Position numbers: made by a program
Shown here: positions 12,001 to 15,000 of the stretch, piece after piece
How the letters are laid out: each line of letters starts with the position of its first letter
How positions within the stretch are numbered: the first letter of the stretch is position 1
Assembly: GCF_000026545.1 (NCBI RefSeq)
Contig: NC_011601.1
DNA length: 64,000 nt
DNA from: Escherichia coli O127:H6 str. E2348/69
GTDB taxonomy: Bacteria > Pseudomonadota > Gammaproteobacteria > Enterobacterales > Enterobacteriaceae
Strand: one strand, 5' to 3'

Positions 12001-15000
12001 TTGAACAAAATATCTCGGCACTGGCACTGGCCGCGCAGGTGATCCCTGGGCATATCATTCATATCACCTCTACGGTGCTGAATATCTTTGCCGTACTGAC
12101 TGCATTCTTTGGCATTTATCTCGGTTTCCACGAGGCCATTAAAGGCATTATTCTCAATCTGTTAAGCCGAATTATTGATACCAGGAAAATTAACTCACGC
12201 ATGCTGACTCTGGCGATCTGCGCTTTTATCGTCATTACGTTGACGATTTGGGTTTCGTTTCGTGTATCGGTGCTGGTGTTCTTTCAGTTGGGAAGCCCGT
12301 TATATGGCATTGTGTCGTGCCTCATTCCATTTTTCCTGATCTCTAAAGTTTCACAACTGAAAAAACTACGCGGGCTAAAAACATGGCTTATCCTGTTTTA
12401 TGGTATTTTGCTGTGCTTTTCGCCGCTATTGAAGCTGATTGAATAAAAGTAACGGGGGCTGCTCACAGCAGCCCCAGACGATGTCGATAGCATTGCAGCA
12501 CAGCCTGGATATGATCCTGAGTCATAAAGGACTGCTCATACGTTTCCATAACAATGGCATTTTCTTTACGTATATCCTGAAAGAGTTTTTCCAGCAATCT
12601 GGGCGCTAACCCCATTGATTCACCCAACAGCAAAAAGTCCTGCCCGATATACTCGCCATAATCACTGTGAAATCCAGGAGCCAGTTCCCGACCGCCTTCT
12701 TCTCGCGTCAATAACGGCAGCGCCAGATAGTTTGAGTAAAAATATTCCGGATAGGGAGCGACAGAAACAAAGTCATACACCGGCGCTAACGCAGGCGTCA
12801 AACCATCGGAGTACACTAAGCCAAAGTTTCGTAAATGCATGTCGTTATTACCCAGCAACCAGGCGTAAACAATGCGACGAAAGAGATCGATTTTAAATGC
12901 GATGTTGTCGTTAACATGGGCAACTAAAAATCGGGCCAGCGTTTCATAGCTGACATATTGTTCGTTATCATTCCCCGTTTTGCCATATTTATCTGTAATC
13001 TGCATCGCGCCATCAAGCTGTTCCTGATGCACTGGCAGCCCCTTGTTATCCCGGTCATAGCGCCGGATAACAAATGCGTATTCAAGCTCTTCCTCTGATT
13101 GTGGTGCAAAACTCAACAGGCCATGCACAGGTACGTCAAATCCCAAACGAGACATCAATGTCATTGTTGCGTGTTCATTTTCGGCCAAACCGGGAAAGTC
13201 GGCTGGAGAGGGCTTAAGGATAAAATTTCCCTGATGATCTACGACGCGGAACTCTCCTTCATCCAGCACTAATTGCAATTTGGGCTGGTAACCGGAAATA
13301 CTCATCCCTTTTTGTTGACGCGGAAGTTCCTGCACAAACTGAGTTCGCGTAAACCCCAGCCGAGGATTCAATTTTGCAGTGCCGCTCAGTCGCTTCAACC
13401 CCTGTGTCGAATATCCGCGCTGTTCGTCACGTTCATTCAACGGCGTTAACAGAATACGACAATTCGCCATTATTCCTCCCAAGGTAAAATCTGGATGGCC
13501 CCCAGCAGATTCTTGCCGTTATCAATAAGCATTCCCAGCAGATCGTTTTCGTCACGATGCTGTATCTGGCTGTAGCGTTGACGCAGCCATCCTTCTGGCG
13601 CCAGTGAGGCGAAATAAGGATGCAACGTCTCACTGGGAAACTGACGCTGTGCGACGGGCAGACTGATTGAGATTGCCGGTCCGTGGTAATCGTGGGCGTA
13701 CTGGAACAAAAAACCACTGTCGTTCTGAGAGAGTTCACCCACTACCTGACCATAGAGCAACACTTTCACTCGCCGATGCATAGTTTCACTCCAAGAACAT
13801 TCGCCACCGCGAACACACTGCCGAATTTAACCTGTTCAGGATCCTTAAAAAGTCGCTTTAACGTGGACGTTGAGATCCCCGTTTGTAGTTCAAGTGTGTA
13901 TAAATCAATGCCCAATTCTTTGCGACGTGCGTTCAGTTGTTCCCCCAAATGACGGGGAGTCTCAATGGTCAGGAGGGGGCGTGGTTGACTAATATTCGGC
14001 CCCTGAATAAGTTTCTTCTGCAACTCCTGGAGTTGGTCGCCGATCGCTTTCAACTCTTGAGCCAGATTTTGTGGTCCTGAGCAGATCATTAAAGAACCTT
14101 TCGATTGATAAAAGACAAAAACAAGATCATTTATGGTCAGATAAATTCGTTAAGTATCACAAATGAACCATTTTTCATTAATGGTTATAATTTAGCTCAT
14201 ATATAACTCATTGGCAAAGAAAAAGGTCAAAAAAGATACATAAATGATAGATAAAGCATAAAAAGGTCATATTTGACATGAGATCAGCATGAAAGCTGAT
14301 CTCATCGGGAGAGTTAAACAGCTGGCTTCTGCGGATTTTCATCCTGATCAACGGCAAAACAAGCTACCAGTTGACCGCCGTAGTCTTTTAGCTGCGGCTG
14401 CAACTGGGTGCAGGGGCCGAAGCGTCGACGACAGCGGGCGTTGAAGGCGCAGCCTGGCGGTGGATTCAGCGGGCTTGGCAGTTCACCGGTAAGTTTGATG
14501 CGTTCGCGACGATCGTCCGGGTTCAGGCGTGGTGTCGCGGAGAGCAGCGCCTGAGTGTACGGGTGGCGCGGGTTATTGAAGATTTGGTCCTTCGTCCCCT
14601 TCTCCACGCAGCGGCCCAGGTACATCACCATCACTTCATCAGCAATGTGCTCCACCACCGACAGATCGTGGGAGATAAAGACATAAGATAGCCCCAGTTC
14701 CTGCTGCAAATCCATCATCAGATTCAGCACCTGCGCACGCACTGAGACGTCCAGCGCGGAAACCGGCTCATCGGCAATCACCACATCCGGGTCGAGCATC
14801 AGACCTCGGGCAATGGCGATACGCTGACGCTGACCGCCGGAGAACATATGCGGATAGCGGTCATAATGCTCGGTTTTCAGGCCGACTTTCGCCATCATCG
14901 ACAGAGCTTTTTCCCGACGCTGTACTTTGCTTAAGCTGGTGTTGATCAGCAGCGGCTCTTCGAGAATCTGCCCAACTTTTTTACGCGGATTCAGCGAACC

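Follow-up and report, generated by a model that had tools for sequence, protein, structure and literature searches.

The DNA analysed here is a 64-kb stretch (64,000 nt; 'the window', whose positions are used for all numbering) from Escherichia coli E2348/69 (O127:H6), and its segment 12150-12750 is 100% identical to the E2348/69 chromosome. In this segment the transporter gene yhjV meets, tail to tail, the hipBST toxin-antitoxin operon, which is read from the other strand and ends with the toxin gene hipT. A gap of only 16 nt (12447-12462) separates the yhjV stop TAA (12444-12446, plus strand) from the hipT stop TGA (12465..12463, minus strand), and a short palindrome, the subject of this analysis, sits at the hipT end of the gap. 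It consists of GGGGCTGCT (12455-12463)-cac-AGCAGCCCC (12467-12475), for a total span of 12455-12475, and the two arms form nine perfect base pairs, seven of them G-C, around a 3-nt loop (12464-12466). An earlier sequence-only reading had described a stem between the two convergent stops that reaches into the last hipT codons, and the sequence, the open reading frames (ORFs) and the RefSeq annotation all bear this out. The range first given for it (12450-12476) brackets the stem, but the fifth G of the quoted arm (12454) opposes A12476 and is unpaired, which leaves 9 bp.

The stem is stable on either strand. The plus strand folds at -18.5 kcal/mol and the minus strand at -17.9 kcal/mol (z = -3.9 to -4.5), and none of 200 shuffled sequences matched them. 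We also estimated how often such a structure arises by chance from 30 first-order Markov simulations of the 64-kb window, counting perfect hairpins with a stem of at least 9 bp, at least seven G-C pairs and a loop of 3-8 nt; these yielded 0.03 per 64 kb. When all perfect hairpins of at least 9 bp are considered, the window holds ten distinct ones, most of them terminator-like (19 hits if every register and loop is counted, compared with about 1.8 per simulation). Given the shuffle result and the simulated rarity, we regard the hairpin as real and not as a chance palindrome. It matches no known RNA family: an Rfam scan of 10000-15000 (E <= 1) returned nothing at the hairpin, its only matches being rdlD and sok-like hits at the ldr loci described below.

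Table 1. Coordinates of the hairpin, its tails and the surrounding genes (a dot marks a feature without strand)
Feature	Position	Strand	Basis or remark
5' arm on hipBST mRNA (GGGGCUGCU)	12467..12475	-	coding: last base of the Leu332 codon plus the Gly333, Leu334 and Leu335 codons; sequence, ORF, fold
Loop, 3 nt, GUG on mRNA	12464..12466	-	final base of the Leu335 codon, then U and G of the hipT stop UGA
3' arm on hipBST mRNA (AGCAGCCCC)	12455..12463	-	first base is the A of UGA; rest intergenic
Interrupted U-rich tail on hipBST mRNA (CGUUACUUUUAUUCA)	12440..12454	-	terminator scan and T-score
Tail after hairpin on yhjV transcript (AGACGAUGUCGAUAG)	12476..12490	+	no U-tract; T-score 0.06-0.17, d -37 to -42
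yhjV, transporter gene	11175..12446	+	RefSeq annotation; stop TAA 12444-12446
hipBST operon	12463..14089	-	RefSeq annotation of E2348/69, ORFs, HipT family search; hairpin closes its 3' end
hipT, HipA-family toxin	12463-13470	-	RefSeq
hipS, HipA N-terminal-domain protein	13470-13781	-	RefSeq
hipB, helix-turn-helix protein	13766-14089	-	RefSeq
dppF	14314-15327		RefSeq
Segment found only in hipBST-positive genomes	12448..14310	.	holds the hairpin, hipTSB, the hipB promoter region and the dppF-side hairpin

On the hipBST mRNA the two arms have different origins. The 5' arm is coding sequence, made of the last base of the Leu332 codon followed by the GGG CUG CU of Gly333, Leu334 and Leu335, and the 3' arm is an inverted copy of these Gly-Leu-Leu codons placed directly past the UGA stop. 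What comes after the stem depends on the strand. A U-rich tail, which can be written CGUUACUUUUAUU or CGTTACTTTT, is present on the hipT (minus) strand only, and its UUUU run comes from the yhjV stop codon and flank read on the opposite strand. In line with this, a consensus terminator scan flagged the site on the minus strand and left the plus strand unflagged, and it found no further terminator-like site between the hairpin and yhjV.

We scored both strands with a discriminant of the d'Aubenton-Carafa type, which gives a T-score and a value d. The clear terminators in the window (d >= -2) have T-scores of at least 2.8 and d values of -1 to +37. On the minus strand, the site reaches a T-score of 0.91 and d = -21.7 when the tail is counted directly from the stem, and 2.5 and -1.5 when the CG next to the stem is taken as a spacer. 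On the plus strand, the tail (AGACGATGTCG, AGACGAUGUCG) has no T-run, and its scores (T-score 0.06-0.17, d -37 to -42) fall far short of those of all canonical terminators in the window. Upstream of the hairpin, the plus strand carries an A-rich tract. As a crude indicator of rut sites we also followed the C/G ratio downstream of the hairpin; the plus strand has a C-rich 100-nt stretch (C/G 1.9) 100-200 nt away, and nothing stands out on the minus strand.

Taken by its features, the site has the stable, G+C-rich stem of an intrinsic terminator (-17.9 kcal/mol and z = -4.5 on the hipT strand) and lies at the 3' end of a transcription unit, where it overlaps the hipT stop. The two-sided A-tract/U-tract symmetry expected of a symmetric bidirectional terminator is absent, the plus-strand tail having no T-run. 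Judged in this way, the stem of the hairpin is strong and the U-tract behind it mediocre on the hipT strand and missing on the yhjV strand; by classical criteria the hairpin would at best be a one-way, borderline terminator for hipBST. Since the yhjV strand lacks a U-tract, a classical bidirectional terminator finds no support.

We weigh the hairpin first as a feature of hipBST, and give a probability of about 60% to its being the 3'-end stem-loop of this toxin-antitoxin operon. Most likely it is an unannotated terminator or stabiliser of hipBST, that is, an ordinary operon-end signal. In the transcript, the last hipT codons (GGG CUG CUg) would pair with the inverted copy directly past the UGA to form the 9-bp stem, with the U-rich tail behind it, and the whole may act as a moderate, non-canonical Rho-independent terminator. 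Alternatively, if it is no terminator, the stem could serve as a pause site and as a barrier to 3'-to-5' exonucleases, so that the toxin cistron has a fixed and stabilised 3' end. Antisense transcription into yhjV would be limited as well. The palindrome folds just as well on the yhjV strand; without a U-tract, its role there would be limited to pausing RNA polymerase (RNAP) or protecting a processed 3' end.

An added twist is that translation may set how well the terminator works. With coding sequence in the 5' arm and the stop codon in the loop, the stem would be expected to be occluded by any ribosome that completes hipT, and efficient termination may occur mainly when no ribosome follows closely behind the polymerase. 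Ribosomes are known to repress terminators located within a few bases of a stop codon: in a reporter, termination fell from about 90% to below 10% when the stop was moved to 5 bp before the terminator (PMC4824070).

Several points weigh against an operon-end signal. The U-tract is interrupted and set off from the stem by CG, leaving d at -21.7 or, at best, about -1.5. The triloop on the 9-bp stem is shorter than the loops usual in E. coli terminators. Every copy of the hairpin is identical, leaving no covariation to assess, and hipT homologs at 63-73% identity lack an equivalent hairpin where the gene ends, some carrying REP-like (repetitive extragenic palindromic) sequences there and some nothing. 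The structure is therefore no conserved requirement of hipBST. Finally, a literature search for transcript 3'-end mapping in E2348/69 or any hipBST-positive strain found none, and the paper describing hipBST (PMC6581861) describes no terminator or transcript 3' boundary.

The hairpin can also be compared with known systems. Like the intrinsic terminators of E. coli, it has a G+C-rich, perfect 9-bp stem (seven G-C pairs, about -18 kcal/mol) after the last gene of an operon, followed by a T-rich stretch. Unlike them, its U-tract is interrupted (CGUUACUUUU) and lies two bases off the stem, its d is negative to borderline and its loop has only 3 nt. A further difference is the coding 5' arm with the stop codon in the loop, through which translating ribosomes should interfere (PMC4824070). 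With bidirectional terminators it shares a palindrome in a very short convergent gap, folding on both strands and an A-rich tract upstream on the plus strand. It differs from those of the A-tract/hairpin/U-tract kind in lacking the plus-strand U-tract, whereas the spacer between yhjV and dppF in K-12 has both tracts.

Bidirectional termination can also be imagined without U-tracts. The Liu laboratory has described a collision-type class that works only with traffic from both promoters; such terminators are reported to be unlike intrinsic ones, with the hairpin as no more than a pause and positioning signal (bioRxiv 10.1101/2022.10.23.513370). Applied to this site, the hairpin would pause RNAPs arriving from yhjV and from hipBST, and head-on and trailing collisions would release them, with no U-tract needed. 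The palindrome folds alike on both strands and lies within the 16-nt gap of two convergent genes, as such a mechanism would have it, and for the K-12 pair yhjV-dppF at least half of 58 transcriptomes show convergent transcripts that overlap (PMC12288877). On the other hand, the model requires frequent traffic from both sides, trailing polymerases included (bioRxiv 10.1101/2022.10.23.513370), and all that is observed here is a hairpin between convergent genes. Judged from the account of type II systems in PMC6581861, hipBST would be an autorepressed toxin-antitoxin operon. A U-tract of any kind is absent from the plus strand, and the literature search returned no 3'-end data for E2348/69. Two-sided traffic seems unlikely for an autorepressed operon that faces yhjV, a gene we assume to be poorly expressed. 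We consider the collision mechanism unlikely at this site. Of the bidirectional terminator suggested in the sequence-only reading, a borderline one-way terminator is what remains: on the hipT strand there are the scan and the U-rich tail, on the yhjV strand there is no U-tract to carry it, and its collision form, though conceivable, has no support here.

The gene hipT is present in 160 of the 5,426 complete E. coli genomes, every time at this locus, and the hairpin is identical in all 160. It is also identical in genomes whose HipT proteins, members of the 99% HipT cluster, NCBI names 'unclassified Escherichia'; these genomes have the same dppF-hipBST-16 nt-yhjV order and an identical spacer; the rest of the islet diverges by about 3-4%, and the nearest substitutions are at 12443 and 12495. 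At such divergence only about 0.7 changes are expected in 21 nt, and the invariance therefore carries no weight.

Outside Escherichia, the closest HipT proteins are 63-73% identical. The E. coli protein, with 335 aa, is the shortest of the family and ends in ...RLGLL, while all homologs inspected run 4-10 residues past the ...RL(G/x)(L/x)L motif (e.g. RLGLLKHYD, RLGRLSLIDEPPL). At the DNA level, the nearest hipT genes resemble that of E. coli up to its stop codon and no further, and the closest homologs have no counterpart of the 3' arm or of the palindrome downstream of hipT. The codons that build the 5' arm differ as well: the Gly-Leu-Leu of E. coli is written GGG CTG CTG, giving the perfect stem, and that of a 73%-identical homolog (L006) GGA CTA TTA. 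This homolog shows nothing significant in folding at its hipT 3' end, and REP-like sequences lie downstream of hipT in three others (L005, L010 and L012). In a 67%-identical homolog (L008), hipT has a hairpin of its own at 4523-4546, with 6-8 bp (GCCCCCGC...GCGGGGC, z = -2.3); its 5' arm is formed by Pro-Pro-Leu codons and its loop holds the TAA stop, an E. coli-like design from unrelated sequence. A stem-loop at the hipT 3' end is thus recurrent across lineages and not homologous between them.

The shortened HipT gives some room to a second alternative, in which the hairpin is a functionless by-product. The inverted codon copy would have arisen when the yhjV-hipT junction formed, e.g. by a deletion or a snap-back repair that shortened HipT, and would have been kept because the haplotype is young and nearly clonal. 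The abrupt end of homology at the stop codon, the 4-10 residues missing from HipT and the restriction of the hairpin to the Escherichia junction would all fit, and the identity of all copies gives no sign of purifying selection beyond recent ancestry. The +1 frame past the E. coli hipT stop (12463-12480) moreover reads EQPPL, which resembles the (D/N)EPPL ends of 344-aa homologs and would fit a frameshifting deletion; we speculate that such a deletion may have created both the early hipT stop and the juxtaposition. The resemblance amounts to about 11 matching bases, however, and may be coincidence. Against a by-product, too, a stem of 9 bp with seven G-C pairs is expected just 0.03 times per 64 kb, the hairpin lies exactly where the operon needs a 3' end, its T-rich tail is on the right strand, and the synonymous codon choices maximise pairing. 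We hold this account to be rather improbable, a shade more so than collision, and the 3'-end stem-loop of hipBST remains the preferred reading.

The sequence-only reading had also suggested that the hairpin might mark the left insertion junction of hipBST, and the yhjV 3' flank of genomes without the operon speaks to this. All 5,260 matching genomes without hipBST align only as far as 12447, one base past the yhjV stop, and similarity picks up again at GAGTTAA (14311). The hairpin, absent from all hipBST-less genomes, starts at 12455, so that 8 nt separate it from the left boundary of the segment so delimited. In place of this segment, genomes without hipBST carry a different element of 25 nt, in K-12 CCGGAGCGCATGGCCCCGGTTTTGT, which folds as A-tract/hairpin/U-tract on both strands. 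The yhjV-dppF spacer of K-12 is 29 nt long, ACCGGAGCGCATGGCCCCGGTTTTGTGAG / AAACCGGAGCGCATGGCCCCGGTTTTGTG (AAACCGG...CCGGTTTT; L001 2797-2827), a compact, two-way terminator-like sequence with both tracts present. The alignment shows the hipBST allele to have replaced this putative A-tract/hairpin/T-tract terminator common to yhjV and dppF.

The right edge has a second perfect hairpin, of 11 bp, which ends 5 nt short of the boundary and lies close to the dppF stop, between dppF and the hipB promoter region, ATGAGATCAGC-atgaaa-GCTGATCTCAT (14278-14305). It has no T-run on either strand (d = -32 and -43). Superficieibacter has a hairpin at the same dppF-side site with both arms changed (ATGAGATCAGC/GCTGATCTCAT in E. 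coli vs GGAGACCAGC/GCTGGTCTCC), followed by a conserved GTCAAATATGA.

The flanking genes carry the record of how the allele spread. yhjV is a mosaic: over its first ~1,100 nt it shares 97-100% identity with K-12 and 89-99% with unclassified Escherichia, and its last ~170 nt (12275-12446) drop to 92% and then 79% against K-12 while reaching 96-97% against hipBST-bearing unclassified Escherichia. Over the last 298 nt of the gene, none of the 5,260 matching hipBST-less genomes exceeds 92.6% identity. On the other side, the dppF 3' end is about 96% identical to K-12 once a 9-nt indel is excluded, so that only the yhjV flank is strongly divergent. Owing to this in-frame 9-nt difference (14314-14330), DppF of E2348/69 has 337 aa and ends in ...DENPQKPAV, compared with 334 aa and ...DENPQR in K-12. 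In the two nearest hipBST-bearing relatives (L005, L006) DppF ends in KPGV or KPVA, resembling E2348/69, and for this reason the longer tail seems to travel with the hipBST allele. Because the yhjV flank is mosaic, we conclude from these comparisons that homologous recombination in the flanking DNA has transferred the allele, hairpin included, within Escherichia.

Beyond E. coli, the operon stays with the dpp genes. We inspected five contexts, one from Superficieibacter sp. BNK-5 and four from metagenomic or run assemblies; in each, hipBST comes right after dppD-dppF, and the module looks like a conserved, patchily kept neighbour of the dpp operon in Enterobacterales and not like a roaming islet. 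The genes on its far side vary: bcsO-bcsQ-bcsA, other genes or, in Escherichia, yhjV (loci L005, L006, L008, L010, L012/L013 and L014-L017).

Set against this, a recombination or integration site (a mobile-element end or an att-like palindrome) through which hipBST entered beside yhjV is very improbable and largely refuted: although both hairpins lie just inside the breakpoints, they are unrelated in sequence, the right one is a conserved dppF-side hairpin with compensatory changes in Superficieibacter, the flanks show the mosaicism of homologous recombination, hipBST follows dppF in the five other Enterobacterales contexts, and the 21-mer occurs nowhere else. Read by eye, the junctions show no terminal repeat, direct repeat or target-site duplication (no repeat search was run there), and neither the ORFs nor the RefSeq annotation place an integrase, transposase or other recombinase within 12448-14310. 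We accordingly rejected a mobile-element or integration junction, the dppF synteny holding in every context examined. Of the suggested left insertion junction, the position stands, 8 nt inside DNA confined to hipBST-positive genomes; the mechanism does not, with no mobile-element scar seen by eye, a dppF-linked operon, a mosaic yhjV and a junction common to unclassified Escherichia. The hairpin belongs to the hipBST allele and marks no integration site.

A dispersed repeat was likewise considered and rejected. Like REP elements, the hairpin is a stable palindrome at a gene 3' end; unlike them, it is half coding and single-copy. A search of the window with up to three mismatches found no other copy except the palindrome's own reverse strand, and the exact 21-mer occurs once in the window and, among 100,044 species representative genomes, in that of one E. 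coli only. Since it is found in a single representative, the hairpin is no dispersed repeat or mobile-element end. Its sequence is presumably also unlike the REP consensus.

Some other features of the region deserve mention. Upstream of hipB, the sole sigma-70-like match is at 14189-14217 on the minus strand (TTGCCA-17-TAAATT), about 100 nt before the hipB start (14089). This promoter region is A+T-rich and is the most divergent part of the islet relative to unclassified Escherichia, with 18 mismatches in 14200-14299. Further away, on the other side of yhjV, 10214-10867 holds two tandem copies of the Ldr/RdlD type I toxin-antitoxin system. The rdlD Rfam matches are at 10265-10330 (90 bits) and 10748-10813 (83 bits), the 35-aa Ldr ORFs are encoded on the strand opposite to them, and the sok-like match at these loci scored below the sok gathering score. 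The copy number of the ldr locus varies, K-12 having a single ldrD and unclassified Escherichia two or three. Between bcsG and the ldr copies (~9427-9885), RefSeq annotates a tnpA of the IS200C family, which is absent from this position in K-12 and in the two other hipBST-positive strains examined (L003, L004).

The importance of the hairpin itself is small: it gives the likely 3' boundary of the hipBST transcript, and the stop codon built into the stem-loop accounts for E. coli HipT being the shortest of its family. A possible farther-reaching consequence concerns yhjV. In K-12, yhjV-dppF is one of 165 convergent excludons (ExcludonFinder, PMC12288877), and this listing makes it plausible that in hipBST-positive strains yhjV reads through into hipT. 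In those strains just 16 nt lie between yhjV and hipT, and the terminator that yhjV has on its own strand is weak; an overlap of the two transcripts is suggested by the missing U-tract. Considering that the yhjV strand lacks this tract and that the native two-way terminator of yhjV and dppF has been lost, we propose, as a long shot, that the hairpin is a one-way gate: yhjV transcripts would run on as antisense RNA over the toxin cistron, forming a convergent excludon, and hipBST termination would track translation of the toxin. If so, HipT output would be sensitive to the expression of yhjV and to translation status, translation being the process that HipT inhibits through TrpS. Read-through from yhjV, if real, would then be a simple natural case of antisense control of a kinase toxin, which is speculation at this stage.

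The context of the hairpin is more informative than the hairpin: the dppF-hipBST allele is syntenic, yhjV is mosaic, HipT has been shortened and the native terminator replaced. For research on HipBST, these observations suggest that the module is best seen as an allele of a conserved dppF-hipBST locus, common to unclassified Escherichia, and not as a free-standing inserted islet.

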